Below, piece after piece: positions 16,441 to 32,743 of a stretch of DNA of 34,933 nt. Source of the stretch: an uncultured Aurantimicrobium sp. (GTDB lineage: Bacteria; Actinomycetota; Actinomycetes; Actinomycetales; Microbacteriaceae); the NCBI GenBank assembly GCA_964589925.1, contig CAZPVE010000001.1, positions 1 to 34,933 of the forward strand, given 5' to 3'. The position numbers and the translations under genes were made by a program. The notes under the pieces were generated by a model, which saw only the letters and a list, made by a program, of their open reading frames with translations, was not told where the DNA came from and did not search any database. Each line of letters starts with the position of its first letter. Position 1 is the stretch's first letter.

Positions 16441-17340
16441 CTAGTGGTAGGCGGCCCAGTTCGCCGACTCATGGCGGGCGCCGGAGGCATCCACCACCAT
16501 TCCGGCAGCTCCCACCTCGGGCAACCACGCGAGAAACTCGTCAGTCGGACGCAAGAAGCCTGACTTGGCCAGAACCTCTGCACGAGCGCCATAGGACGCG
16601 ATCACCGAGACTGTTTGCACATCGGTCACTGCGCTTCGCCCGGTTCGAGGGTCGATGAGGTGATGGGACTCACCGAAGCGCTTCTTTCGCTGGCTCGAGG
16701 TGACGACCCCGCCTTCAACCAGACGAATGACCTCGAGATGTTCCGACTCATCGAACGGGTTCTCGACGCCAAGACGCCACCCTCCAAGCTCGGGGGATTC
16801 ACCCGCAACAACGATGTCCCCGGACATGGAGACCATCACGCCTGCCGCACCCGACATCATGACGGCACCTGCGATGAGGTCGGCCGCAAAGCCTTTCCCG
16901 ATGCCGCCCGCATCGAGGGTCATCCCAGCGGGCACCTGAACGCTGCTCTCTGTGACAACGACTTGGCCCAGGCTGTCGAACGTGTGAGCCCCCGCGTCGA
17001 GCACCGTGCGCTGATCGTCGCTCACCTGAGATGTGGTGTAACCCGCTGCCAGGACGGAAGGCAGAAGCGTGGGGTTGAAGTCGCCCGAGGTCAGCTCCCA
17101 GCCCTCGACCATTTCGGCTACCAGGGCAACCGTGAGCGGGCTCACCGAGATGGCGTCACCACCCGCGCTGTTAATGCGAGAGATTTCACTGTCTGCCGTG
17201 AAGCGCGACCACCGCTGTTCACACGCACGAGCAAGTTCGCAGGCGTCGTCGAGGAGTTCTTCGGTGCCCCCTACGACGGTGATGACCGTCTCACCGCCCA
17301 TCACGCGGATGGTGCGGGTGAGAGCGGGCGAACTAGTCAT
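16441..17340 (-). CDS. apbE: FAD:protein FMN transferase (ApbE family)
   Basis: ApbE-like sequence including DAGGIGKGFAADL and HHLIDPRTG. The start is uncertain: ATG at 17340 overlaps the upstream stop by 8 nt, with alternatives at 17349, 17370 and 17379. No signal peptide or lipobox with any of these starts. Confidence 0.82.
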   Translation of the reverse strand: MTSSPALTRTIRVMGGETVITVVGGTEELLDDACELARACEQRWSRFTADSEISRINSAGGDAISVSPLTVALVAEMVEGWELTSGDFNPTLLPSVLAAGYTTSQVSDDQRTVLDAGAHTFDSLGQVVVTESSVQVPAGMTLDAGGIGKGFAADLIAGAVMMSGAAGVMVSMSGDIVVAGESPELGGWRLGVENPFDESEHLEVIRLVEGGVVTSSQRKKRFGESHHLIDPRTGRSAVTDVQTVSVIASYGARAEVLAKSGFLRPTDEFLAWLPEVGAAGMVVDASGARHESANWAAYH

Positions 17341-18019
17341 CGCCTCCATTGTCGTGGTCTTCACGTTCATCTGACTCATTTTCGTGCTCGCGCTCCGAGT
17401 GGCGACGCGTCGAATTGGCGCCTGAGGACGACCCCGAAGCGGGAGCAGGAGCAACAACACTTCCGTTCGCTGGCGCTGGCGCGGGGGCCGCAGCGGCAGA
17501 TCCTCCCGTGACACCGCTTACCACCGGAGCATTAGCGGCCGCCGAAGCGCCAGCTGCTGGTCGGGGGATTGGACGAGCTGCCGAAGAATTGGCTGAGGCC
17601 CCAGCGGATGACGTGGCAGCTCCCGCGGAATGTGCTGTGGACCCCCCGGTCGTTGCGCTTACCCCGGCGTAAGTGGAGGTACCAGTGTTCGCTGTGGCCG
17701 TTGCAGAACGGGTCGATCCAGCAGGGTTCGCAGTAGTGCTTCCAGAACCACCCGTCGAGCCGCTCATGGTCGAGGCACTCAGATTGGAGAGCTGCGGAGG
17801 AGTTTCAGGAGCCCCCGAGGGCAAGCTGGCTGCGCCAGGGGCGAGTGTCGCCGGGGTACCATCGGCAGTCAGAGTCGCTGTCTGCACGAGGGACGAGCTG
17901 GCTGCGTCGGCGAGATCGGTTCCGCCGTGCGCAAGAGTGTCGCTGTTGAGGGCCATGGCCCCGGCTGCAGACCCAAGCACTCCAACAAAAGAGAGGGCGG
18001 CGACGAAATATGACTTCAT
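17333..18019 (-). CDS. secreted low-complexity Ala/Ser/Thr/Gly-rich protein with acidic His-containing C-terminal tail
   Basis: From the ATG at 18019: MKSYFVAALSFVGVLGSAAGAMA-L is a Sec-type signal with an AxA site. About 180 aa of A/S/T/G/P follow, then RRHSEREHENESDEREDHDNGGDD. Coding status is less certain because all frames are open in this low-complexity stretch. Confidence 0.55.
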   Translation of the reverse strand: MKSYFVAALSFVGVLGSAAGAMALNSDTLAHGGTDLADAASSSLVQTATLTADGTPATLAPGAASLPSGAPETPPQLSNLSASTMSGSTGGSGSTTANPAGSTRSATATANTGTSTYAGVSATTGGSTAHSAGAATSSAGASANSSAARPIPRPAAGASAAANAPVVSGVTGGSAAAAPAPAPANGSVVAPAPASGSSSGANSTRRHSEREHENESDEREDHDNGGDD

Positions 18020-18143
18020 AGCTTCCACGTTAGGGAAGCAACTGCCAAGGCCGCGCCCTCGGACATCCAAGAAATGGACAATGTTGCCTCGGGAGACAGG
18101 AACCGTTCAGCCTCAAGGAGGTCCTGAGCGCAAGAATGGAGCA

Positions 18144-18818
18144 ATGCAGGTACTTCTCGTAGAAGACGACCCCGCTGTGGCGGCTGGCGTCCTTGATGGT
18201 CTGGGTGTTGGTTTTACCGTGACACACGTGCCCACCGGGACCGAGGCACTAGCGGCCCTTGCCGCCAAAGATGTCGATATCGTCCTGCTCGACTTAGGCC
18301 TACCCGACATGGACGGGACCGATGTGTGTCGCGAGATACGCCAGACATCCCAGGTGCCCATCATCGTCGTGAGCGCACGAGGAGACGAAATCGATCGTGT
18401 CCTGACGCTCGAGATGGGGGCAGACGACTATGTAGTCAAGCCCTTCGGCATGCGAGAAATCGTTGCTCGAATTCGCGCTGTCTCTCGGCGAACCTCAGGG
18501 GCGACGGAGGCCGAAAGCTCTGACCCCATCCGCTCTCTGCATGGTTTGAGCATCGACACTCGAACCCAACGCGTGGAGCTCAACGGGGAAGAAATTCACC
18601 TGACACCCAAGGAATTCGATCTGGTGGTGTATCTCACCCAAGATCCCGGTGCCGTTTATCGGCGCCAGGACATCTTGCACGACGTGTGGGACACCAACTG
18701 GTACGGCACCTCTAAAACCCTTGATGCACATGTGGCGGCCATCAGAAAGAAGCTTGGCTCAGCATCGTGGATTGAGTCGGTGCGAGGTGTGGGCTTTCGC
18801 TTCGGCGGTCCTGCGTGA
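18144..18818 (+). CDS. OmpR/PhoB-family response regulator
   Basis: MQVLLVEDD...LLDLGLPDMDG receiver domain plus winged-helix output (LTPKEFDLVVYL...VRGVGFRF). The ORF part upstream of 18144 is rejected. Confidence 0.9.
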   Translation: MQVLLVEDDPAVAAGVLDGLGVGFTVTHVPTGTEALAALAAKDVDIVLLDLGLPDMDGTDVCREIRQTSQVPIIVVSARGDEIDRVLTLEMGADDYVVKPFGMREIVARIRAVSRRTSGATEAESSDPIRSLHGLSIDTRTQRVELNGEEIHLTPKEFDLVVYLTQDPGAVYRRQDILHDVWDTNWYGTSKTLDAHVAAIRKKLGSASWIESVRGVGFRFGGPA

Positions 18819-20209
18819 GAAATCGTTTTATCGCCGCCATCGTCGCAGTGACTCTCTTGGTCTTGCTCGTGCAGGACGTGCCTCTTGCCATCTACATGCA
18901 CCAAAACGAAGAGAACAAGATCACCAGCACCCTGCAGCGCGATGCCCTCGTTATTGCGGCTCGAAGTCAAACCGTGCTGTGGCAGGCAACGCCTGAGAAC
19001 ACCGCTGCCCTCGCCAAGATCACCTCGTCGTATCGAAAGAATGGTGGACCACGCGTGGTCATCGTCAACACAGCCGGCACGGCGGTGCTGGTCAGCGATG
19101 ACGATCAGCTGAAGAAGATTGGGCAATCATTTGCCTCACGCCCTGAGATTATTGCCGCTCTCAAGGGTCAGATTGTTCAAGGGACTCGCTACTCCGAGAC
19201 CCTCAAACAGTCGCTGCTGTATGTGACCGTTCCAGTCTTTAACGGCAACAAGATCATTGGAGCAGTTCGCCTCACTTACCCAGAAAAAGTTGTGTCCGAC
19301 GCGGTCAACAATCAAGTCTGGGTATTGGCACTGATCGCCCTCACGACGATTGCGCTGGCCGCAATTGCAGGCTCGATTTTTGCTCGGGGAGTTACCCGGC
19401 GACTTAAAGACCTGGAGAATGCTACGGATCGCATCGCTGACGGCGACCTCACGGTTCGAGCAGACGAAGCTTCAGGTGCTCCCGAATTGCGCAATCTGGC
19501 ACGTTCGTTCAACACGATGACGAGTCGACTGGAGGTGCTACTCAGTCAACAACGTGGTTTTGCCTCCGACGCATCGCACCAGTTGCGCACCCCGCTAACC
19601 GCCCTGCGGCTTCGACTTGAGCGAGCACAAGAACTGATCAACTCGGATCCTGTCGGTGCTGCCGAGAGGCTGGAGGCCGCCCAGGCAGAGACCGACCGCC
19701 TCAGCGACATCATTGAGGGACTGCTCACGCTGAGCCGAACCGAGGCGACGTCTGCCGTCATCGAAGATGTCGATGCCGCGCGGATTGCCGCCCAACGGGT
19801 TGATCACTGGCAAGCCCTTGCAGACGAGTCCGAAGTGATGTTGCGATACGAAGGTCCGGCCTCGGCTGTAGTCAGCGCCGTTCCCACGGCCGTTGAGCAG
19901 ATCGTCGACAACTTCATCGACAACGCCCTGTCGGTGAGCCCGCCTCGCTCGCTGCTCCTCGTGCGCGTGAGCGTAGATAGCTTAGGAACATCCCTCAGCG
20001 TTCTCGATGAAGGGCCCGGTCTCAGCCCCGAGGACTGCGATCGCGCGTTTGACCGATTCTGGCGTGCGTCATCAGAAACGCCGGGCAGTGGCCTGGGGCT
20101 GTCTATCGTCGCCCAGTTGGCTCACGCAAGTGGGGCTCGAGCCGAGCTGCGTCCGCGCACACCCAAGGGCCTCGAAGCTCGAGTCATTTTCAGCCCGCCA
20201 CGGGGCTAG
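18815..20209 (+). CDS. sensor histidine kinase (2 TM, extracytoplasmic PDC/Cache-like domain, HAMP, HisKA, HATPase_c)
   Basis: The GTG overlaps the regulator stop (GTGA). H-box ASDASHQLRTPLTAL, G-boxes DEGPGL and GSGLGLSIV. Confidence 0.9.
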   Translation: MRNRFIAAIVAVTLLVLLVQDVPLAIYMHQNEENKITSTLQRDALVIAARSQTVLWQATPENTAALAKITSSYRKNGGPRVVIVNTAGTAVLVSDDDQLKKIGQSFASRPEIIAALKGQIVQGTRYSETLKQSLLYVTVPVFNGNKIIGAVRLTYPEKVVSDAVNNQVWVLALIALTTIALAAIAGSIFARGVTRRLKDLENATDRIADGDLTVRADEASGAPELRNLARSFNTMTSRLEVLLSQQRGFASDASHQLRTPLTALRLRLERAQELINSDPVGAAERLEAAQAETDRLSDIIEGLLTLSRTEATSAVIEDVDAARIAAQRVDHWQALADESEVMLRYEGPASAVVSAVPTAVEQIVDNFIDNALSVSPPRSLLLVRVSVDSLGTSLSVLDEGPGLSPEDCDRAFDRFWRASSETPGSGLGLSIVAQLAHASGARAELRPRTPKGLEARVIFSPPRG

Positions 20210-20289: not shown

Positions 20290-20967
20290 GTGGGTTTTCT
20301 TGACAAGCTCGAGCACAGTCTCGAGCGTGCCGTGAACACTGCTTTCGCCAAGACCTTCAAGTCGGGCGTGCAGCCCGTGGAACTCACCGCGGCGCTGCGG
20401 AGGGAAGTGGACACGAAGGCCTCGGTTGTTGCTCGGGATCGCATCCTGGTGCCGAACATATTCACGATTGGCCTCGCGCGCGCCGATTACGATCGCCTCG
20501 CCGGCATGGGCGCCACCCTGATTGAGGAACTCACCCGCCAGCTCACCCGTCACGCCCAGTCGCAGGGGTACCAATTTCCCGGCGCCATTCAAATAACTCT
20601 CGAGAGCATCGATGGGCTTTCCATCGGCATTGTGTCGGTGACCTCAGAGAGCGTTAGCGGCTCGGTCGCCTGGGTGGGTGTTCTCGACATCGACGGCAGG
20701 CGCCACCAACTCGCCAAGAGCCACACCGTGATTGGCCGAGGAACCGATGCCGACATCACCGTCGACGACTCCAGCATCTCGCGCAAACACATCGAGATTT
20801 TGTGGGATGGCAGCCGAGCCGAAGCCAATGACCTGGGGTCAACCAACGGCTCACTGCTCAACGGCCGCAAGCTGACGCGCGCGCCGCTGGAATCCGGCTC
20901 GACGATTGAAATGGGTGCCACCCGCGTCACGTTCCACTTGGTTCCAAAACCGGCAGGCGCCTCGTGA
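20290..20967 (+). CDS. fhaA: FhaA (DUF3662 N-terminal domain plus C-terminal FHA domain), short-linker form
   Basis: (M)GFLDKLEHSLERAVNTAFAKTFKSGVQPVE is a DUF3662 N-terminus. FHA block: IGRGTDADITVDDSSISRKH...NDLGSTNGSLLNG. GAGGA SD 7 nt before the GTG. Confidence 0.87.
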   Translation: MGFLDKLEHSLERAVNTAFAKTFKSGVQPVELTAALRREVDTKASVVARDRILVPNIFTIGLARADYDRLAGMGATLIEELTRQLTRHAQSQGYQFPGAIQITLESIDGLSIGIVSVTSESVSGSVAWVGVLDIDGRRHQLAKSHTVIGRGTDADITVDDSSISRKHIEILWDGSRAEANDLGSTNGSLLNGRKLTRAPLESGSTIEMGATRVTFHLVPKPAGAS

Positions 20968-21488
20968 GCGAACTCACCCTTCTCATCTTTCGCATCGCAT
21001 TTCTGATTGCCCTCTGGGTGTTCGTCTTCTTCGTGGTCTACGCGGTTCGAAGCGACCTGTTCGGCGAGAAGGTCAAACGCCTGATCCCCAGCAAGGCGGC
21101 TCCCGCATCCAGTGCAAAAAGCGTTTTCCTCACCTCGGCACAGACACCACTGGCTGCACCCCGGACCCCTGTGGCTGCAACCCCGGCGGCCGCGGCGGGC
21201 CCGCTGACCCTCGTCATTACTGCCGGGGCCAAGCAGGGTGAGTCGATCACCCTCACCACCAAGCCTGTGAGCATTGGTCGCTCATCCGACTCGTCCATCG
21301 TGATTCGTGACGACTACACCTCCACCCACCACGCGCGCCTCGAGTACCGCTCAGGTAAGTGGATCATCAACGATCTGGGTTCCACCAACGGCACCTTCCT
21401 TGCCGGAACCAAAGTGGCCGAGCCCACCGAGGTTCCGCTCAACACCCCGATCACCATTGGGGCGACCACGTTCGAGATTCGGGCCTGA
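20964..21488 (+). CDS. fhaB: FhaB/FipA (N-terminal TM segment plus FHA domain)
   Basis: GTGA overlap with fhaA. TM segment LLIFRIAFLIALWVFVFFVVY and FHA block IGRSSDSSIVIRDDYTSTHHARL...NDLGSTNGTFL. Confidence 0.87.
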   Translation: MSELTLLIFRIAFLIALWVFVFFVVYAVRSDLFGEKVKRLIPSKAAPASSAKSVFLTSAQTPLAAPRTPVAATPAAAAGPLTLVITAGAKQGESITLTTKPVSIGRSSDSSIVIRDDYTSTHHARLEYRSGKWIINDLGSTNGTFLAGTKVAEPTEVPLNTPITIGATTFEIRA

Positions 21489-21490
21489 CG

Positions 21491-22711
21491 ATGAGCCAGA
21501 GTGGCGCGCGCTCGGACGTTGGTCGAGTCCGCAGAACCAATCAAGATTCCGGATATGCCGGGACCTACCTTTTCGCCGTCGCGGACGGCATGGGCGGGCA
21601 TGCCGGCGGAGACGTCGCGTCGCACATCACGATCAACCACCTGAGCGAACTCGACCGCGAGTTCGACAGCACCGACTCCGCGAGCGCCGCAGTTCGCGAG
21701 CGCATGCTCGAAGCAAACGAAATGCTCATCAAGGTTGTCGACGAGTATCCCCAACTTGCCGGACTCGGGACGACCCTCAGTCTTGTCTTGCGCGTGGGAG
21801 ACCAGGCGGTCCTGGCCCACATCGGTGACTCTCGTGTCTATCGCTGGCGAGACGCCAAGCTTGAGCAGCTCACGCGAGACCACACCTTCGTTCAGCAGCT
21901 GATCGACACTGGCCAGATCACGGTCGACGAAGCGGCAACGCATCCTCGTCGTTCAGTATTGATGCGCGTTCTTGGCGATGTCGACGCGGCACCCGAGATC
22001 GACCTCACCGTCATTGACCTCACGCCGAAAGACGTTTTCCTGCTCTGCTCCGATGGTCTCACCGGTGTCGTTCACGATGCCGACCTGGCAACCGTCCTGG
22101 CCAAAGATGCTGCGCCGCAGACCCTCGCGAACGAGTTGGTAACCCGAAGCCTCGCCGAGGGCGCGCCCGACAACGTCACGGTGATTGTTGCTCGCGACCT
22201 CAAGACGACTACAGCCAAGACCACGAAGTTGATTGGTTCGGCCGAGGGCGAGAACCCCATTCACTCACTTCCGCCGACGTATTCGACCGGAACCGACATC
22301 CCCCGGGCCAAAGCGCAAAGCTTGCCCGTGCACACCGGAGGTCTTCCCATCACACCGTTGCAGGCCAACGCCGTCGAGGCCGATTTTGTCGCGCGCCGTC
22401 GACGTCGGCGGTTGCGTCTCGCCGTGGTGATTGCCCTTGTGGTGTTGGCGCTTGTCGGAGCCATCGTGGCCTTCGCGCAGTGGACACAGTCGCGCTATTA
22501 CCTCAGCGCTGGGCCATCCACCGTTCTCGTCAACCAGGGCATTCCAGAAACGCTCATCGGTATTCCTCTGTCACACGAGTTCGTCGACACCAAGATCAAC
22601 TTGTCCGACCTGACGCCCTACGTGCGCGATCAAATCACGCACACCATCTCGTTTGATTCCCTCGATGCCGCCCTAGCTGCCACAAAAGAGTTGATACCCA
22701 GTGGCAACTAA
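21491..22711 (+). CDS. pstP: PP2C-family Ser/Thr phosphatase PstP (membrane-anchored)
   Basis: RTNQDS...AVADGMGGHAGGDVAS PP2C motifs, a TM segment near residue 320 and an extracellular tail. The ATG at 21491 lies 2 nt after the fhaB stop. Confidence 0.9.
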   Translation: MSQSGARSDVGRVRRTNQDSGYAGTYLFAVADGMGGHAGGDVASHITINHLSELDREFDSTDSASAAVRERMLEANEMLIKVVDEYPQLAGLGTTLSLVLRVGDQAVLAHIGDSRVYRWRDAKLEQLTRDHTFVQQLIDTGQITVDEAATHPRRSVLMRVLGDVDAAPEIDLTVIDLTPKDVFLLCSDGLTGVVHDADLATVLAKDAAPQTLANELVTRSLAEGAPDNVTVIVARDLKTTTAKTTKLIGSAEGENPIHSLPPTYSTGTDIPRAKAQSLPVHTGGLPITPLQANAVEADFVARRRRRRLRLAVVIALVVLALVGAIVAFAQWTQSRYYLSAGPSTVLVNQGIPETLIGIPLSHEFVDTKINLSDLTPYVRDQITHTISFDSLDAALAATKELIPSGN

Positions 22712-24101
22712 CTCGGCAACCGTGGGGGCGGGAATCGATACTGGCCAGATTCCTCGTTTGCGAGCGCCCCGCGCCTCGCAGCGCATGCGCAACATCGAGC
22801 TCGCCCTGCTTGCCGGGGCGTTTGCCATCAGCGGGCTTTCGATTCTGTTCGTGCAGTTGGGCGCACTCGGACACCCCGACGCGCACCCGTTTGGCTTGTG
22901 CCTCATTTTGGTGTTCCTGATTTTGCTCCTGCACGTGGCCATGCGGTTGGTTGCCCCTCAGGCGGACGCACTCATCATGCCCATCACCGTCGTGCTCAAC
23001 GGCTTGGGTATCGCCGAGATCTACCGCATCGACCTGCACCTCAAGGCACTCGGCTGGGATGCTCTGGCCACCAAACAGATTGCCTGGTCGGCCTTGGCTA
23101 TCGGCGCCGCTTTCGCGGTCATCGTTCTCGTGCGTGATCACCGCGTGCTGCAGCGCTATACCTACACCTTCGGTCTCGTCGCGGTCGTTCTCCTTTTGCT
23201 GCCTGTGCTTCCGGGAATCGGCACATCCATCAACGGCGCTCGCGTGTGGATTCAGATTGGCTCGCTGACCTTCCAGCCGGGTGAGATCGCCAAGATTGCC
23301 CTCGCGATTTTCTTTGCCGGATACCTCGTTTCCCACCGCGAAAGCCTCTCGATGGTGGGCCGCAAATTCTTGGGGATGCGTTTTCCGCGAGGTCGCGACC
23401 TGGGACCGATCATCGTCGTCTGGCTGCTGTCGATGGGTGTCATCGTCACGCAGCATGACCTCGGCACCGGTCTACTCTTCTTCGGACTGTTTCTTGTCAT
23501 GCTCTACACCGCCACCAGCCGAGCGAGTTGGGTCATGCTCGGTGTTGGTCTGGTTGTGGTTGGCGCTGTCGCGGCCAACCAGTTCCTGGACTACGTGAAC
23601 GACCGCTTTAGGAACTGGTACGACGCGTTCAACCCCGAGCGCTACAACGTGGACGGCGGTTCGTATCAGGTTGTGCAGGGTCTCTTCGGTCTCGGACACG
23701 GCGGCCTCTTCGGCACGGGTCTCGGGCAAGGCATGCCCTACATCACCCCGGTTTCCCAAAGCGACTACATCATCGCGAGCCTGGGTGAAGAGATCGGACT
23801 TGTCGGCCTGTTCGCCGTGCTGTGTCTCTATGTGCTCCTCGTCGGCCGCGGTTTGCGCATCGGGTTTGCCGGCCACGACGACTTCGGCACGCTGCTGTCG
23901 GTAGGCCTCTCCTTTGTTATCGCGCTGCAATGCTTCCTGATCATCGGCGGCGTCACGCGAGTTCTTCCCATGACGGGTCTGACCACCCCGTTCTTGGCCG
24001 CCGGTGGTAGCTCCCTCATCGCGAACTGGATGATCATCGGCTTGCTGTTGCGCTTGTCCGACACCAACCGTCGTGAATCAGGGTTGGTGATCAGCTCGTG
24101 A
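22701..24101 (+). CDS. rodA: FtsW/RodA/SpoVE (SEDS) family peptidoglycan glycosyltransferase
   Basis: 466-aa polytopic protein with SEDS blocks (QPGEIAKIALAIFFAGYL; SDYIIASLGEEIGLVG; LPMTGLTTPFLAAGGSS). The start may instead be the Met at codon 29. Confidence 0.9.
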   Translation: MATNSATVGAGIDTGQIPRLRAPRASQRMRNIELALLAGAFAISGLSILFVQLGALGHPDAHPFGLCLILVFLILLLHVAMRLVAPQADALIMPITVVLNGLGIAEIYRIDLHLKALGWDALATKQIAWSALAIGAAFAVIVLVRDHRVLQRYTYTFGLVAVVLLLLPVLPGIGTSINGARVWIQIGSLTFQPGEIAKIALAIFFAGYLVSHRESLSMVGRKFLGMRFPRGRDLGPIIVVWLLSMGVIVTQHDLGTGLLFFGLFLVMLYTATSRASWVMLGVGLVVVGAVAANQFLDYVNDRFRNWYDAFNPERYNVDGGSYQVVQGLFGLGHGGLFGTGLGQGMPYITPVSQSDYIIASLGEEIGLVGLFAVLCLYVLLVGRGLRIGFAGHDDFGTLLSVGLSFVIALQCFLIIGGVTRVLPMTGLTTPFLAAGGSSLIANWMIIGLLLRLSDTNRRESGLVISS

Positions 24102-25555
24102 ACCGCGAACTCAAGCGCGTGACGATCGTGGTGTTTGCCATGTTCATGTCGCTCTTTGTGGCCCTGTCGATCATCCAGGTGGTTCAAGTGGATGCGCTGG
24201 CCGCTGACGGCCGTGACACCCGCATCCTCTACGACAGCTACAAAGCCCGCCGCGGGCCGATTCTGGTGCAGGGCTCGCCGATTGCAGAGTCGCGTCCGGT
24301 GTCGGATGACTACCGCTACCAGCGCACCTACCTCAACCCCTTCACCTATGCCCAGACCACCGGCTACTTTTCGCTGAACCAGGGCATCACCGGCATCGAG
24401 TCGTCGATGAACTCTTACCTCAGCGGCACGAACGGCTCCCAGTTCCTCGACCAACTCAACTCGATCCTGACCGGTCGTCCGGTCACCGGTGCCTCGGTCA
24501 CCCTCACACTCAATGCCAAAGTGCAAAAAGCCGCATGGGATGCCCTCGGTTCCTATCAGGGCGCGGTCATCGTTACCGAGGCCGACACCGGCAAGATTCT
24601 GGCGATGGTCTCGAAGCCGTCCTACGACCCCAACCTGTTGTCGTCCCATGACACGGATACGGTCATCGCCGCTTACAAGAAGCTGTTGAACGACCCAGCA
24701 AATCCTCTGATCAACCGGACTATTGATGGGCGTCTCAACCCTCCTGGCTCGACGTTCAAGCTGGTGATGGTGTCGGCCGCACTCGAGTCGGGCAAGTACA
24801 CCCCGGCCAGCACGTTCCCCAACCCGGCCCGCCTTCGCCTGCCTCAGACCGATGTCGTCATCCAAAACTCGACGGGGGAAACCTGCGGCCCGGGGCCCAC
24901 GGTAACCCTGGCCGATGCCCTTCGCCTGAGCTGCAACATCCCATTCGCCGAGCTCGGCATGCAGCTAGGCAGCAAGGCAATTCTGGAGCAAGCCGAGAAG
25001 TACGGGTTCAACAAGAGCTTCCAAATTCCGATGTACGTCGAACCGAGCGTGTTCCCGCAGTACCTCGATGAGCCCCAAACCGCGCTGTCCTCGTTTGGCC
25101 AATTTGATGACCGAGCCACCCCCCTGCAGATCGCCATGGTGTCGATGGCGATTGCTAACGGGGGCAAGCTCATGTACCCCACAGTGGTCGATTCCGTCAC
25201 CTCAGCTGACCTCAAACCCATCAAATCCTTCTCCGGTCAGGTCTACGGCCAGCCGATCAGTGCGCAAACCGCTGCGACGATTACCCAAATGATGGTGGCC
25301 GATGTCAGCAATGGTGCAGCAAGTAATGCGAGGATTAGTGGAGTAGCTGTGGCGGGTAAGACCGGCACCGCAGAAAATGGGGCAAATAATCCCTACACTC
25401 TGTGGTTCACCGGGTTTGCTCCTGCAGACGGAGCTCACAAATACGCCATCACCGTTCTCGTTGAGAACGGCGGGGGAATGGGAAAGAACGGTTTCGGCAA
25501 CCTCATTGCCGCTCCCGTTGCAAAGAAAGTCTTAGAGGCGGTGCTAAATAAATGA
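24098..25555 (+). CDS. pbpA: class B penicillin-binding protein (PbpA-type transpeptidase)
   Basis: GTGA overlap with rodA. N-terminal TM anchor, SxxK (STFK) and KTGT motifs. Confidence 0.9.
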   Translation: MNRELKRVTIVVFAMFMSLFVALSIIQVVQVDALAADGRDTRILYDSYKARRGPILVQGSPIAESRPVSDDYRYQRTYLNPFTYAQTTGYFSLNQGITGIESSMNSYLSGTNGSQFLDQLNSILTGRPVTGASVTLTLNAKVQKAAWDALGSYQGAVIVTEADTGKILAMVSKPSYDPNLLSSHDTDTVIAAYKKLLNDPANPLINRTIDGRLNPPGSTFKLVMVSAALESGKYTPASTFPNPARLRLPQTDVVIQNSTGETCGPGPTVTLADALRLSCNIPFAELGMQLGSKAILEQAEKYGFNKSFQIPMYVEPSVFPQYLDEPQTALSSFGQFDDRATPLQIAMVSMAIANGGKLMYPTVVDSVTSADLKPIKSFSGQVYGQPISAQTAATITQMMVADVSNGAASNARISGVAVAGKTGTAENGANNPYTLWFTGFAPADGAHKYAITVLVENGGGMGKNGFGNLIAAPVAKKVLEAVLNK

Positions 25556-27207
25556 GGCCAGCTGCAGGTATGAACTTCGGCGGACGATACGAACTCGAAT
25601 CGCGTATCGCCGTGGGTGGCATGGGCGAGGTGTGGGGCGCCGTTGACACCGTGATTGGTCGCCAGGTCGCGATCAAGATCTTGAAGGATGAGTACCTCGG
25701 TGACCCCGGCTTCCTCGAGCGCTTCCGTGCTGAGGCCCGTCACGCCGCCCTGGTTAACCACGAGGGCATCGCCAACGTTTACGACTACGGTGAGGAGAAC
25801 GGCAGCGCCTTCCTCGTCATGGAACTGGTTCCCGGTGAACCCCTTTCCTCGGTTCTTGAGCGCGAGCACACACTGTCGATTGACAAGGTTCTCGACGTCG
25901 TGGCCCAGACGGCCGCCGCACTGCAGGCCGCGCATGCCGCAGGTCTCGTGCACCGAGACATCAAGCCGGGCAACATGCTCATCACCCCTGAGGGTCGCGT
26001 CAAGATCACCGACTTCGGTATCGCCCGCATCGCAGACCAGGTTCCCCTCACGGCAACCGGCCAGGTCATGGGCACCGTGCAGTACCTGTCGCCCGAGCAG
26101 GCCAGCGGACAGCCGGCAAGCCCTTCCACCGACATCTACTCGCTCGGCATCGTTGCTTATGAATGCCTCGCAGGCAAGCGTCCGTTCAGTGGTGAGTCGC
26201 AGGTCGCCATCGCCATGGCACAGATCAACGATGTTCCTCCCGCTCTGCCCGAGACCATCGCCGAGCCCGTTCGCAATCTGGTCATGGCGTGTATCGCCAA
26301 GAAGCCCCAGGATCGCCCGACCTCGGCCGCTCACCTCGCTCGCGCCGCCCAAGCTCTTCGCCGGGGTGACCTTCAGGGTGCAGCCGCGTCAGTTCCGGCA
26401 GTCCTCGGCACCCACCCTGTGGATGACGCGACGATCGTCATGCCACGCACGGCCGCAACCGGTGCCACCACGATTCTGAGCATCCCCGGCGCCCCCGAAG
26501 AGGCGGCTGAGCCCAAGAAGCGCAGCCCCTGGACCTGGCCCCTGGTCGCCCTCATCGGCGTCCTCGTTATCGTCCTTATCGGCTCGATCATTGCTCTCCT
26601 CGCCGGTGGCGGGTCCAACCCCACGCCGTCGCCCACGGAGTCATCGCTCACGCCGACACCGACGCCCACACCGACGCCCACACCCACGTCGACCGGCGCC
26701 GCCATCAACCTTCAGGACTACAAGGGACAGCCGGCGGCTGACGTGGTTTCGTCACTCAAGGCAATGGGCTTCACCAACGTAACCTCGGTTGCCAAAGACA
26801 TGGCCCCCACGCCCGCGGATGCCGGCAACGTTTATGACATCAAGCCAAACGGCCCCACTGTCGTCAACTTTGCCACCCCCGTGGTTGTCACGTACTACGA
26901 CGGCATCCCCGTTCTTCCGGCCCCGGGTTCACCCACGGTTACGCCCAGCACCATTACGGGTTCGGGCGTTGTCACGGTCGACTGGAGCAACCAGAATTTC
27001 TCTAGCTTCTGCCCGACCAAACCCACAACAGGTTTGAGCGGCTTCACGGTGACCTACAAAAACGGCATCACCACGACCGTTGGAGCGACTGAGACAAGCG
27101 TGCCGATTTCGGTGAGCTCGGGACCGAGCTTCAACGTGTACCTGACCGTGCTCTGTGGAACACTCAAGTCACCGCAGTCGGCACCGGTCATCGTCACCGT
27201 CAACTAG
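25552..27207 (+). CDS. Hanks-type Ser/Thr protein kinase with all catalytic motifs intact (pknA position), TM segment, Thr-Pro linker, PASTA-like domain and a C-terminal beta-rich domain
   Basis: VGGMGEVW G-loop, VAIK, HRDIKPGN, DFG, SPE. TM segment WPLVALIGVLVIVLIGSIIALLAGG. ATGA overlap with pbpA; the Met at codon 7 is an alternative start. Confidence 0.9.
   Translation: MRPAAGMNFGGRYELESRIAVGGMGEVWGAVDTVIGRQVAIKILKDEYLGDPGFLERFRAEARHAALVNHEGIANVYDYGEENGSAFLVMELVPGEPLSSVLEREHTLSIDKVLDVVAQTAAALQAAHAAGLVHRDIKPGNMLITPEGRVKITDFGIARIADQVPLTATGQVMGTVQYLSPEQASGQPASPSTDIYSLGIVAYECLAGKRPFSGESQVAIAMAQINDVPPALPETIAEPVRNLVMACIAKKPQDRPTSAAHLARAAQALRRGDLQGAAASVPAVLGTHPVDDATIVMPRTAATGATTILSIPGAPEEAAEPKKRSPWTWPLVALIGVLVIVLIGSIIALLAGGGSNPTPSPTESSLTPTPTPTPTPTPTSTGAAINLQDYKGQPAADVVSSLKAMGFTNVTSVAKDMAPTPADAGNVYDIKPNGPTVVNFATPVVVTYYDGIPVLPAPGSPTVTPSTITGSGVVTVDWSNQNFSSFCPTKPTTGLSGFTVTYKNGITTTVGATETSVPISVSSGPSFNVYLTVLCGTLKSPQSAPVIVTVN
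26650..26688 (+). repeat. in-frame tandem repeat encoding (Thr-Pro)6, with the 12-nt unit ACACCGACGCCC present twice perfectly
   Basis: Read directly: acgccg acaccgacgccc acaccgacgccc acacccacg. Confidence 0.8.
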
Positions 27208-27216
27208 TTCGAGTCC

Positions 27217-28962
27217 GTGACCACGTCAGGGAGTCTCTTTGCCCAGCGCTACCGCGTTGGCTCAGAGCGCCCTGACCTGGCATTTGTCGACAGCCTGACC
27301 GCTGTTGACGAAAAGCTCAACCGTCAGGTTGTGGTGACCCGCATCAAAGAGCGGTTCGCAAGCAACCAACCGTTCGTCGACAAGTTCGTTCGACATGGGC
27401 GCAGCGGGCTTGGGGTCGTGCACCCCGCGCTGGCGCGGACCTACGACGTTGGAGTGGACGACGCCACGGGCGAGACCTACCTGGTCAGCGAACTGCCCGC
27501 GGGTGAAACCCTGCACGAGATTCTCAAGCGCGGGGCCCTGGAAAACGAGCGTGCTGCCAAAGTCCTGCGGCAGGTCGCACAAGGTCTCGCGTTCGCGGCC
27601 GAGCGCGGGCTGCACCATCTCGGACTGACCCCGAAGAACATCTGGGTCACGGCCGATGACCGCGCCCTTGTCACCGGTCTCGCAGTTGCTGCCCTCGCCG
27701 CAGAAACGGCACCAACCGCAGACTTCCTCGCGTCCGCACTTGGCACCTCGGGCTATCTGGCGCCCGAACAAATCGTGAGAGAGCCCACGACCGAAGGCAC
27801 CGACGTCTATGCCCTTGGGTTGATTCTGAGTCAGGCCCTGTGCGGCCGACCCACCTGGGACCGAAACCTCCGCGGAGTAGCCCTCACTGAGCGAGCTGCG
27901 CAACGTGCGGTTCTCCCCGGAACCGTGATTCCCACTGTGCCCGCCGACCTCGACGCACTGATCAGCGAGGCAACCGAAGTCCGTCCAGCCGATCGCACCC
28001 TGACCCTCAGCATGATCGCGGATCGACTCGAGTCCTATGTAGCCCCGACGCACGAAATTGGTGAGGTCCCTGCGGCAGTCCTCCCGCCGACCGAACCGTT
28101 TGTCGTCGTGCCACCAGCCAGTGTGGCTGCCCCCGCAGCGCCGACGGTCGCCCCGGGCATCAACCCGTCGCTCGCCAAGGTTTTTCCCGCGCGCAGCTTG
28201 AGCACTCGAGAGTTTTCCACCGCCGAATTCAACGCGGGTCGCACACCGCAAGCCTTCCGATCTCTGTTGACGATTGCCGTCGGTTCGGTTGTCGGACTCG
28301 CCGCGCTCATCCTGATCGTGGTCAGTGCAATGCCGGCCAACGTTATTCCCTCGACGAGTCGCCCGATTCCGAATGTCGTGGGCTACACCTACGACCAGGC
28401 GGCAACGGCAATCACCGACGCAGGCCTCAAACCTGTTCGTCAGGACAAGACGGATGAGACGGTTCCTGCCGGAACTGTAATTTCGGTCTCCCCTGGGGTC
28501 GGCACCAAGGTTGAGATCGGCTCGAAGGTAGGAGTTACAGTCTCACTCGGCGCCAAGACAGGCGTGATTCCTAACGTCGTAGGAACGGCACTCGCCTCGG
28601 CTCAAAAGATTTTGCAAGATGCCGGTTTCGTCGTAGGCGTCGTCACTGAGGTGCCAAACGGATCCGTCGTTAAGGGCGCGGTTGCTGCCACCGACCCCGT
28701 CGGCGGCCAGACACTTCCGGCTGGTTCAACCATTAATCTTTCGGTGGCCAACGGCAAGGTCACTATCCCGAATCTTGTCGGCAAGACCGTGACCGAGGCA
28801 ACGACAATTCTTGGGGGCCCCACGATTGGAATCACCCCGAAGCTCGCAGCCGATACCGGATGCGCCGCCAGCTCTCCGGTCGCGGTGAGCGCCCAATCTG
28901 CCGGCCCCGGCGATGTTGCGCGCGCGACGGGCATCACTCTGACCTACTGCACCGGTCGTTAG
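27217..28962 (+). CDS. PASTA-domain receptor with a degenerate kinase domain (predicted pseudokinase) in the pknB position
   Basis: Kinase-like fold with YLAPEQ retained but no G-loop. VAIK Lys is replaced by Thr, HRD by HLG, DFG by TGL. A TM segment and three PASTA repeats (PNVVGYTYDQA..., PNVVGTALASA..., PNLVGKTVTEA...) follow. GTG start. Confidence 0.85.
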   Translation: MTTSGSLFAQRYRVGSERPDLAFVDSLTAVDEKLNRQVVVTRIKERFASNQPFVDKFVRHGRSGLGVVHPALARTYDVGVDDATGETYLVSELPAGETLHEILKRGALENERAAKVLRQVAQGLAFAAERGLHHLGLTPKNIWVTADDRALVTGLAVAALAAETAPTADFLASALGTSGYLAPEQIVREPTTEGTDVYALGLILSQALCGRPTWDRNLRGVALTERAAQRAVLPGTVIPTVPADLDALISEATEVRPADRTLTLSMIADRLESYVAPTHEIGEVPAAVLPPTEPFVVVPPASVAAPAAPTVAPGINPSLAKVFPARSLSTREFSTAEFNAGRTPQAFRSLLTIAVGSVVGLAALILIVVSAMPANVIPSTSRPIPNVVGYTYDQAATAITDAGLKPVRQDKTDETVPAGTVISVSPGVGTKVEIGSKVGVTVSLGAKTGVIPNVVGTALASAQKILQDAGFVVGVVTEVPNGSVVKGAVAATDPVGGQTLPAGSTINLSVANGKVTIPNLVGKTVTEATTILGGPTIGITPKLAADTGCAASSPVAVSAQSAGPGDVARATGITLTYCTGR

Positions 28963-32281: not shown

Positions 32282-32743
32282 ATGGGCAAGAAAAAGGTCA
32301 GCGAAGCCGAGCGACTGCGTATTGAAGGCGAGCGCCTTCTGCACGAGCAGCGCGAGGTCTTGGCGCACGCCGGCTCAGTTGTCCGCGATGCGAGCCGCGA
32401 GCTTGGTCGTTACGCTCACGACGAGGCCTACCCCCGCGTAGCCGCTGGCACCCGCCAGGCCGCAGCGGCGACGCGTCACAAGATTGTCGATGAGGTGTTG
32501 CCGAGTGTGGCCAGCGTCATCGGATCAACTCTCGCTGCCGTTGAGTCGGCTCGCTCCAAGGGCGCCGGCAAGGGCTCCAAGGTTGCCTCGGCTGCAGTAG
32601 CTGCCGCACTCAGCAAGGCACCGAAAAAGAATGGTGCGGGCAAGGCCATCGGCTTCGGTCTGGTGTTCGCGGTTGCCGTCGGTGTTGGGTATGTGCTGTG
32701 GCAGACCTTCCGTGCCGACGATGAGCTCTGGATCGACGAATAA
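32282..32743 (+). CDS. hypothetical tail-anchored membrane protein (same position and architecture as CwsA/Rv0008c)
   Basis: 153 aa: helical charged N-terminal part, Lys/Ala/Gly-rich linker, single C-terminal TM segment (AIGFGLVFAVAVGVGYVLW). GGGAGGG SD 5 nt before the ATG. Divergent from ppiA. Confidence 0.6.
   Translation: MGKKKVSEAERLRIEGERLLHEQREVLAHAGSVVRDASRELGRYAHDEAYPRVAAGTRQAAAATRHKIVDEVLPSVASVIGSTLAAVESARSKGAGKGSKVASAAVAAALSKAPKKNGAGKAIGFGLVFAVAVGVGYVLWQTFRADDELWIDE

Follow-up and report, generated by a model that had tools for sequence, protein, structure and literature searches.

Can a receptor kinase of the PASTA type be maintained without the residues that make it a kinase? This question is raised by the gene at 27217-28962 (forward strand) of a 34,933-nucleotide stretch of DNA from an uncultured Aurantimicrobium sp. 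of the Microbacteriaceae (contig CAZPVE010000001.1), the whole of which is referred to here as the window. PASTA kinases (PknB, StkP, PrkC, IreK) are central to growth, division, and β-lactam tolerance in Gram-positive bacteria, and their activation mechanism is still debated (PMC13434768). The gene has an intact open reading frame (ORF) with a GTG start, and its product is a membrane protein of 581 amino acids. The ORF and its translation, Pfam matches to Pkinase and PASTA, and the orthologues identify the whole gene as that of a pseudokinase receptor with PASTA repeats, derived from PknB and located where its operon has pknB. An initial annotation of the window had called the protein a pseudokinase and proposed that it acts as an allosteric partner or scaffold beside a live kinase encoded immediately upstream.

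The catalytic motifs of the kinase domain are lost

The kinase core of the 27217-28962 product was aligned to PknA and PknB of Mycobacterium tuberculosis by phmmer against the PDB. The alignments span residues 6-270 on PknB and 28-260 on PknA with only small loop gaps, none of which falls between motif positions, and a MAFFT alignment with intact orthologues is concordant. A register shift that restores a catalytic lysine or aspartate is thus excluded, and the support for a pseudokinase is strong. The equivalent of the G-loop is the glycine-free sequence SERPDLAFVDS (residues 16-26; 27262..27294), in which P19-D-L21-A22 aligns with the GFGG/GxGG of active kinases. The β3 lysine of VAVK is replaced by T41 in VVV-T41 (27337..27339), and the αC glutamate by H60 (27394..27396). 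The catalytic loop, HRDxKxxN in active kinases, reads H134-L-G136-L-T138-P-K-N141 (27616..27639), with G136 in place of the HRD aspartate and T138 in place of the catalytic-loop lysine. The DFG equivalent is G154-L155-A156 (27676..27684). All of these elements lie on the forward strand and were assigned by alignment and column comparison. The initial annotation had already described a missing G-loop, a VAIK lysine changed to threonine, an αC glutamate changed to histidine, and an HLGLTPKN catalytic loop with glycine for aspartate, and the alignments agree with it on each point. It had also read DFG as TGL; the loss of the motif stands, but that reading was one residue off. The Pfam Pkinase profile scores 70 bits against the product (residues 32-261) versus 169 bits against the neighbouring kinase, and its first 20 positions, which hold the G-loop, are left unaligned.

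The same columns were compared between 19 members of the pseudokinase family and 100 intact PASTA kinases. The β3 lysine, the HRD aspartate, the DFG aspartate, and the catalytic-loop lysine are each found in 100/100 intact kinases and in 0/19 family members. In their place the family has threonine (17/19) or serine (2/19) in β3, glycine (19/19) in HRD, glycine (18/19) or asparagine (1/19) in DFG, and serine, threonine, or asparagine at the catalytic-loop position. The second and third glycines of the G-loop, present in 100/100 intact kinases each, occur in 0/19 and 1/19 family members. At the first G-loop position 97/100 intact kinases have alanine; the family residues at the three positions are P/x, F/V/L/P, and A. 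The αC glutamate (100/100 in intact kinases) is kept by two family members (H 13, Q 3, E 2, N 1) and the catalytic-loop asparagine (100/100) by six of the 19. The structural hallmarks are intact: the HRD histidine and APE glutamate are each found in 100/100 intact kinases and 19/19 family members, and the αF aspartate and αH-αI arginine in 99/100 and 19/19 each. In the window protein these are the HRD histidine, P183-E184 of the APE motif, D196, and R260.

Residues that could compensate for these losses were also considered. K44, in the sequence TRIK, is unable to substitute for the β3 lysine because it is not conserved in the family, and D147/D148 and N141 were excluded as they too are variable. 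Across the 19 aligned sequences we found no conserved substitute lysine or aspartate, nor any other conserved charged residue, in β2, β3, or the catalytic loop. The protein combines a kinase fold with a catalytic triad (Lys, HRD Asp, DFG Asp) that is lost in 19/19 members. On sequence grounds it should be a class-1 type pseudokinase, predicted to bind neither nucleotide nor metal. Of the features that mark a PASTA Ser/Thr kinase it retains the single transmembrane helix, the PASTA repeats, and positional orthology in the operon; it lacks the catalytic Lys/Asp/Asp and the Gly-rich loop, and its score against NCBIfam PknB_PASTA_kin (NF033483), 251.6 bits, is under the cut-off of 450.

The kinase fold and receptor architecture are retained

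An AlphaFold2 (AF2) model was produced with the 19-sequence alignment and has a mean predicted local distance difference test (pLDDT) score of 80.8. The pseudokinase domain (residues 1-272; 27217..28032, forward strand), supported by AF2, Foldseek, and the ratio of nonsynonymous to synonymous substitution rates (dN/dS), is a kinase fold without catalytic elements. Residues 11-270 are modelled with pLDDT of ~80-95, apart from a dip around residues 236-238. The best Foldseek matches in the PDB are the kinase domains of M. tuberculosis PknB and PknA, with target-normalised TM-scores of 0.76-0.88 and E ~1e-19. Together with the HRD histidine, APE glutamate, αF aspartate, and αH-αI arginine, these results bear out the earlier view that fold-level features persist.

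The remaining parts, all on the forward strand, follow the order of a PASTA receptor. A fast-evolving linker (residues 273-312; 28033..28152) has pLDDT <50, zero invariant columns, and a dN/dS of 0.3-0.5; in the AF2 model its disorder spans residues 278-308. Beyond a juxtamembrane motif described below, a single transmembrane helix (residues 344-370; 28246..28326) is indicated by the AF2 helix and its hydrophobic sequence. PASTA repeats 1 and 2 (residues 381-446 and 447-512; 28357..28752) match Pfam PF03793 in two stretches at 107.9 bits and are modelled as α/β units. A divergent PASTA-like repeat (residues 513-581; 28753..28959) carries the conserved cysteine pair C549/C578. Of the three intact repeats originally described, two pass the Pfam threshold; the third is below it (16.5 bits versus 23.2), although AF2 gives the same α/β unit, and 18/69 of its columns are invariant in the family. 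The cysteine pair and the LTYCxG end of this repeat are common to the intact PknB proteins of Aurantimicrobium and Agromyces.

The pseudokinase is conserved under purifying selection

A search of 5.8 billion proteins returned 19 orthologue clusters with identities of 42-93% and scores of 433-1152 bits, every one of metagenomic origin, including metagenome-assembled genomes (MAGs). Below them the scores fall off sharply to ordinary PASTA kinases at no more than 211 bits. The same class of substitutions is found in every aligned family member, the ORFs of the 19 orthologues and of an additional locus (L086) are intact throughout, and none of the aligned members has a truncated or lost pseudokinase domain. 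The family is rare. It is present in only 3 MAGs among 185,579 species representatives, one of them labelled 'uncultured Microbacteriaceae', and a scan of metagenome contigs yielded just one extra family locus. A profile search of 1.84 billion representatives found few 50%-identity clusters within the family and revealed P0328, discussed below. In the same profile search a set of giant proteins of 1,000-3,400 amino acids (P0241-P0255), in which as many as 23 distinct PASTA-like stretches occur, scored above true family members. At least one family protein is publicly annotated as an active 'Stk1 family Ser/Thr kinase'.

Selection was estimated by the Nei-Gojobori method with the window and L081, the closest relative, as the reference pair (93% amino acid identity, unsaturated dS of 0.35). 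The dN/dS of the pseudokinase domain is 0.12 against L081 and 0.087 against L082 (78% identity). Against L081 the juxtamembrane motif and transmembrane helix together give 0.06; the PASTA ectodomain gives 0.07-0.10 (0.10 against L081) and the disordered linker 0.3-0.5 (0.52 against L081). The corresponding L081 values for the operon neighbours are 0.014 for the kinase domain of the adjacent kinase, 0.023 for rodA, and 0.011 for pbpA. Purifying selection clearly acts on the pseudokinase protein, at a strength roughly 5-10 times lower than on its operon neighbours. Because the substitutions are kept in 19+ intact orthologues down to 41% identity, with a dN/dS of ~0.1, we exclude a pseudogene, an assembly artefact, a sequencing error, and strain-specific decay; the survey of orthologues suggested in the initial annotation thus favours conserved substitutions over decay or artefact. 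The retention of a PknB orthologue over many genus-level divergences without its catalytic residues implies a selectable receptor function that is independent of its own kinase activity.

The pseudokinase descends from an intact PknB

The pseudokinase gene is the last of an fhaA-fhaB-pstP-rodA-pbpA-pknA-pknB operon identified by Pfam. Downstream, on the opposite strand, are genes for a GATase (trpG/pabA-like), a sortase, a rhomboid, and a cyclophilin. Other actinobacteria have this layout, in the operon and downstream of it, in their pknB region near oriC, and in one relative gyrA follows at a greater distance; we therefore regard 27217-28962 as the positional pknB. The operon gene order is identical in four related loci (L002, L003, L081, L086), and the window locus and its relatives have a GATase-sortase-crgA-rhomboid-ppiA context in common.

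The nearest cultured relatives of the neighbouring kinase are found in Aurantimicrobium minutum (66-76% identity) and Agromyces (about 64%). In both Aurantimicrobium and Agromyces the slot of the dead gene is occupied by an intact PknB with GxGG, VAIK, the αC glutamate, HRDIKPxN, and DFG. The ectodomain of these proteins matches that of the window protein, with three repeats, the last ending in ADTSC...LTYCxG, and two cysteines. Identity between dead and intact orthologues is 27-32% in the kinase fold and 33-44% in the ectodomain. Since the more distant cultured relatives keep an intact PknB in the same slot, the catalytic loss is lineage-specific. A neighbour-joining tree places the pseudokinase family at the end of a long stem, and its monophyly is recovered in 100/100 bootstraps.

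A second group, which we call the HQG clade (P0020 and P0328), has partly lost its catalytic residues. P0328 lies in the pknB slot at 904-2709 of locus L087. The ectodomain of the clade is the same as that of the pseudokinase family. In this clade HRD has become HQG and the catalytic-loop lysine has become threonine (HQGITPNN), the β3 lysine and the aspartate of 'DVG' are retained, and short stretches are deleted from the activation loop and close to αG. The HQG clade is the probable sister of the pseudokinase family: it takes this position in 91/100 bootstraps when all columns are used. Trees built from just one part of the protein give this position little support (29 for the kinase domain, 27 for the ectodomain), so long-branch attraction is possible. 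Since the β3 lysine and the DxG aspartate are kept, members of the clade may be able to bind nucleotide, in which case they would be ATP-binding pseudokinases, possibly at an intermediate stage. The derived loop H-x-G-[IL]-T-P, common to the HQG clade and the pseudokinase family, suggests a stepwise decay in which the catalytic loop probably went first and the ATP site later.

Two further proteins show changes in the catalytic loop. An otherwise intact PknB orthologue at 5720-7558 of L085 has HRDVTSKN, in which the D+2 lysine is replaced by threonine and a lysine is found at D+4, and P0376 has the similar loop HRDITPGN. To judge from these examples, the catalytic loop seems to drift readily in kinases that occupy the pknB position in this bacterial group.

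Cytoplasmic surfaces of the pseudokinase

Invariant columns in the cytoplasmic part of the family are concentrated in three regions, all encoded on the forward strand. The activation segment with the P+1/APE region (residues 158-187, TAPTADFLASALGTSGYLAPEQI; 27688..27777), identified from invariant columns and AF2, is remodelled. In its consensus TAPxADFLASAxxTSGY, 6/23 columns are invariant, as are 3/7 in P+1/APE, and AF2 predicts two ordered helices (residues 155-164 and 168-175, pLDDT ~90). A family-specific αF-αG loop and αG motif follows at residues 209-228 (CGRPTWDRNLRGVALTERAA; 27841..27900). In its consensus, C[AG]RPTWD..L..G..L..RA, 9/19 columns are invariant, a higher density than anywhere else in the domain; in αF the count is 5/15. 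In the alignment this motif overlies V222/A225 of PknB, on the front-to-front face; changes at V222/A225 have been used to disrupt the PknB front-to-front dimer (PDB 3F61 title; PMC13434768). The third region, recognised by invariant columns and dN/dS, is a juxtamembrane motif at residues 313-343 (GINPSLAKVFPARSLSTREFSTAEFNAGR; 28153..28245), with the consensus GINPxLAKxFPAxSLSxxxFxxxEFxAGR and 11/31 invariant columns. Only a short LF core is common to this motif and the intact orthologues. As read from the alignments, all three regions are remodelled relative to active kinases and then conserved within the family.

The N-lobe residues R11, L34, and D77 are also invariant in the family and correspond to R10, L33, and D76 of M. 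tuberculosis PknB. A catalytically dead PknD partner can reportedly activate the wild-type PknD kinase domain, and R10 reportedly plays a role in the back-to-back interface (Lombana et al. 2010). L33D and D76A are published mutations that break the PknB back-to-back dimer (PMC13434768; PDB 3ORI and 3ORM titles), and dimerisation through the N-lobe activates PknD and PknB allosterically (review PMC3601408). The N-lobe Arg/Leu/Asp set, the activation segment, the αG motif, and the juxtamembrane motif are thus the surfaces indicated as carrying the retained function.

The active kinase encoded upstream

The gene at 25552..27207 (forward strand) encodes an active Hanks kinase of 551 amino acids and ends 9 nt before the start of the pseudokinase gene. 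As originally reported, it keeps all kinase motifs: AVGGMGEV, VAIK, the αC glutamate, HRDIKPGN, DFG, and SPEQ. With its motifs and conservation it is the likely catalytic partner. A live kinase is found directly 5' of the pseudokinase gene in every locus with enough upstream sequence (the window, L002, L003, L081, L086), and also directly 5' of the HQG-clade gene at L087. Its kinase domain (25552-26376) is 100, 97, 97, and 90% identical between the window and L081, L002, L086, and L003, respectively, and 86-91% identical to those of Aurantimicrobium, Agromyces, and L085, which makes it the most conserved element of the operon by far. The ectodomain is only 34-56% identical, apart from the near-identical L081 (99%). 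It contains a degenerate single PASTA-like repeat (residues 388-448; 26713..26895, forward strand) that matches Pfam PASTA below threshold (18.4 bits, E of 0.002, profile positions 4-62 of 64), and its orthologues in Aurantimicrobium and Agromyces also have a weak PASTA match. The live neighbour is therefore not sensor-less, which tempers the picture drawn in the initial annotation. The region after this repeat is β-rich and C-terminal, and has two cysteines (FCP...LCG).

Comparison of 14 neighbour kinases of the pseudokinase clade with 107 others revealed four clade-defining changes in the kinase domain: T31V, E/D83N, Y87F, and T107S. V31 is found in 13/14 clade members, and the residue is threonine in 107/107 others. 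V31, N83, and F87 (codons 25642-25644, 25798-25800, and 25810-25812, forward strand) lie in the β2-β3 and β4-β5 regions, which also hold the equivalents of PknB L33 and D76. Three of the four changes are in the N-lobe, compared with 13 N-lobe and 50 C-lobe positions among variable columns (P ~0.03). This bias is a weak hint of co-adaptation with the pseudokinase.

Possible functions of the pseudokinase

We put the probability at about 60% that 27217-28962 encodes a conserved dead descendant of PknB that serves the neighbouring kinase as a sensor or regulatory subunit, without catalysis of its own. The dead PknB arose a single time, among Microbacteriaceae that are uncultured and probably live in fresh water, and has been kept by purifying selection since. 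In the proposed model the PASTA ectodomain would still read, or localise to, peptidoglycan or lipid II, and the dead kinase domain would relay the signal through protein-protein contacts to the active kinase. The contact may involve the N-lobe back-to-back surface, the remodelled activation-segment/αG face, or both, and the partner kinase would perform all phosphorylation. The invariance of R11/L34/D77, the constant pairing with a live kinase, and the new cytoplasmic motifs are consistent with the 'allosteric partner or scaffold' put forward initially.

Several observations weigh against a sensor or regulatory partner. R11, L34, and D77 are near-invariant in ordinary kinases too, so their retention could be partly structural. 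Among the cytoplasmic surfaces, conservation is highest on the front face of the C-lobe and in the juxtamembrane region, and this constraint beyond the N-lobe suits a substrate, scaffold, or pseudosubstrate (inhibitory) role no less well than N-lobe allostery. The pseudokinase domain is 41-50% identical where the neighbour kinase domain is 90-98% identical, and such fast evolution, the fastest of any operon part, would not normally be expected of a protein bound tightly and obligately to a partner that hardly varies. Lastly, as the neighbour has its own PASTA-like repeat, a separate sensor may be unneeded. A stricter form of the regulatory-partner model, a natural split PASTA receptor kinase in which the PknB orthologue is a pure sensor that controls the adjacent kinase solely through kinase-domain contacts, is put forward tentatively, with the odds against it. 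If it were true, PASTA signalling would proceed without phosphotransfer by the receptor itself, and the clade would be a natural experiment for separating dimer allostery from autophosphorylation and from kinase-independent PASTA roles. The reach of these ideas is limited by a small clade of uncultured organisms and by a mechanism that we infer.

We rank a regulatory or sensor subunit ahead of, in order, an MviN-like phospho-scaffold, a PASTA-only role, an inhibitory partner, and non-canonical catalysis. As a phospho-scaffold or substrate, the dead domain or the juxtamembrane motif would be trans-phosphorylated by the neighbouring kinase and would bring FhaA/FhaB, or other proteins, to where the wall is synthesised. 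There is precedent in M. tuberculosis, where the pseudokinase MviN is phosphorylated by PknB and binds FhaA (PMC12599244; PMC3601408), and fhaA and fhaB are within the same operon here. No cytoplasmic parts of the protein are more constrained than the activation segment, αG face, and juxtamembrane motif, which include the invariant S178, T213, and S329; moreover, the front-to-front dimer of PknB presents the activation-segment/αG face to the partner kinase. However, FHA domains require phosphothreonine, and the sole invariant threonine is T213 in RPTWD. Threonine positions in the activation loop and juxtamembrane motif vary (T, S, or other residues), and the AF2 model predicts ordered helices, not an accessible loop, in the activation segment. 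We consider a phospho-scaffold unlikely. We attach a lower probability still to an extracellular-only role, in which the PASTA ectodomain is localised to, or organises, wall enzymes (penicillin-binding proteins, hydrolases) and the cytoplasmic domain is a folded anchor without signalling. The higher identity between dead and intact proteins in the ectodomain (33-44%) than in the kinase domain (27-32%), the low dN/dS of the PASTA region, and the rapid evolution of the pseudokinase domain relative to other operon parts would fit such a role. A passive anchor would nevertheless have no need of the new invariant motifs (RPTWD-αG, activation segment, juxtamembrane), and the domain is clearly under purifying selection (dN/dS ~0.1) and is neither truncated nor lost in any family member.

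The sign of the proposed regulation could also be negative. The pseudokinase would then hold its neighbour in an inactive heterodimer or block it as a pseudosubstrate until a PASTA ligand relieves the inhibition. The structural evidence for this is the same as for the sensor or regulatory partner, and the ordered helical activation segment of the model resembles those of inactive kinases and could fill the active site of a partner. Sequence cannot separate positive from negative regulation, but the known N-lobe dimers of PknB and PknD activate and do not inhibit; we hold an inhibitory partner to be quite improbable. Least probable of all, and by our estimate very remote, is a non-canonical enzyme, either an atypical kinase or one with another activity such as AMPylation, that works through different residues. 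WNK and SelO are precedents among so-called pseudokinases (cited in PMC12599244), and the HRD histidine is invariant. Against this, the G-loop glycines, the lysine, both aspartates, and the metal-binding asparagine are lost or unconstrained, and the 19 sequences hold no compensating conserved charged residue in β2, β3, or the catalytic loop.

Genomic context

The remaining operon genes were assigned by Pfam and are all on the forward strand: fhaA (20290-20967; FhaA_N/FHA), fhaB (20964-21488; FHA), pstP (about 21491-22711; PP2C), rodA (22701-24101; FTSW_RODA_SPOVE), and pbpA (24098-25555; PBP_dimer_2/Transpeptidase). The longest pstP ORF, at 21359-22711, would encode 450 amino acids and overlaps fhaB by 130 nt, compared with 406-408 amino acids in orthologues. 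Because the orthologues begin directly after fhaB, the true start is probably near 21491.

Other features of the window lie outside the operon. Between tRNA-Leu(CAG) and fhaA is a block of ~3.8 kb (about 16441-20209) that contains ApbE (16441-17514, reverse strand), a response regulator ending at 18818, and a HAMP/HisKA histidine kinase (18815-20209). This block is cleanly missing from the 93%-identical L081 (2900-3068), in which the flanks are joined directly. A regulator-kinase pair is found 5' of fhaA in L002 and L003, and at least the histidine kinase is found there in Aurantimicrobium. As these relatives have all or part of the pair, the block was probably lost from L081. Beside ppiA, an ORF of 153 amino acids at 32282-32743 (forward strand) has no Pfam match; L081, L082, L003, and Aurantimicrobium (L083) have an ORF of equal size at the corresponding place.

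Comparison with known systems

The closest known proteins are the PknB/Stk1 PASTA kinases (NF033483; 'KAPD'), especially the intact PknB of Aurantimicrobium and Agromyces, which have the same operon slot, architecture, and cysteine pair. M. tuberculosis PknB and PknA are the nearest structures, and the N-lobe dimer residues of PknB are kept. The window protein differs from PknB/Stk1 kinases in its replaced catalytic and ATP-binding residues, remodelled activation segment and αG, new juxtamembrane motif, faster-evolving kinase-fold domain, and sub-cut-off score.

A bacterial Ser/Thr kinase atlas and its companion review describe seven pseudokinase families (ActPs1-3, GLW, CP1, DYD, and DLHK). 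None of these is described with PASTA domains, and the 'KAPD' PASTA kinases are a canonical family there. Like ActPs1-3, the window protein has lost all three catalytic-triad residues. Its likeness to MviN (Rv3910)/ActPs3 extends to an actinobacterial, membrane-associated kinase fold linked to cell-wall synthesis and the PknB/FHA pathway; it differs from MviN/ActPs3 in its PASTA-kinase origin and extracellular PASTA sensor. The hallmark of ActPs3 is an activation-loop deletion of ~40 residues with several smaller deletions (PMC12599244), whereas the activation segment here can be aligned to PknA/PknB over its full length, which is the same as theirs or a little greater. ActPs1 is related to Act1, and about 60% of its members are without the G-helix (PMC12599244). 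Compared with that description, the window protein has a predicted, highly conserved αG at residues 220-226, and its nearest relatives are PASTA kinases and not Act1. ActPs2 has arginine for the β3 lysine, asparagine for the HRD aspartate, a deleted DFG, and large insertions (PMC12599244). In the family described here the lysine is replaced by threonine or serine and the aspartate by glycine, the DFG positions are present as GLA in the window protein, and there are no large insertions.

Full-text searches that combined PASTA and pseudokinase found no description of a PASTA pseudokinase, although an earlier mention in a large survey is possible. A pseudokinase descended from a PASTA receptor kinase extends the small set of bacterial pseudokinase families by one that is linked to PASTA. 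Among eukaryotes, certain receptor pseudokinases pair with a live kinase, as in HER3/ErbB3 with HER2/EGFR and in the plant receptor-like pseudokinases. By analogy with HER3/HER2, the window protein joins a ligand-binding ectodomain to a catalytically dead kinase domain and would need an active paralogue for its output. It differs from HER3/HER2 in lineage, sensor domain, and candidate dimer interface, all of which are unrelated, and in that its candidate partner is encoded by the adjacent gene. Should the PASTA receptor prove to be split in this way, it would be a bacterial counterpart of HER3/HER2, of which the HQG clade would preserve an intermediate step.

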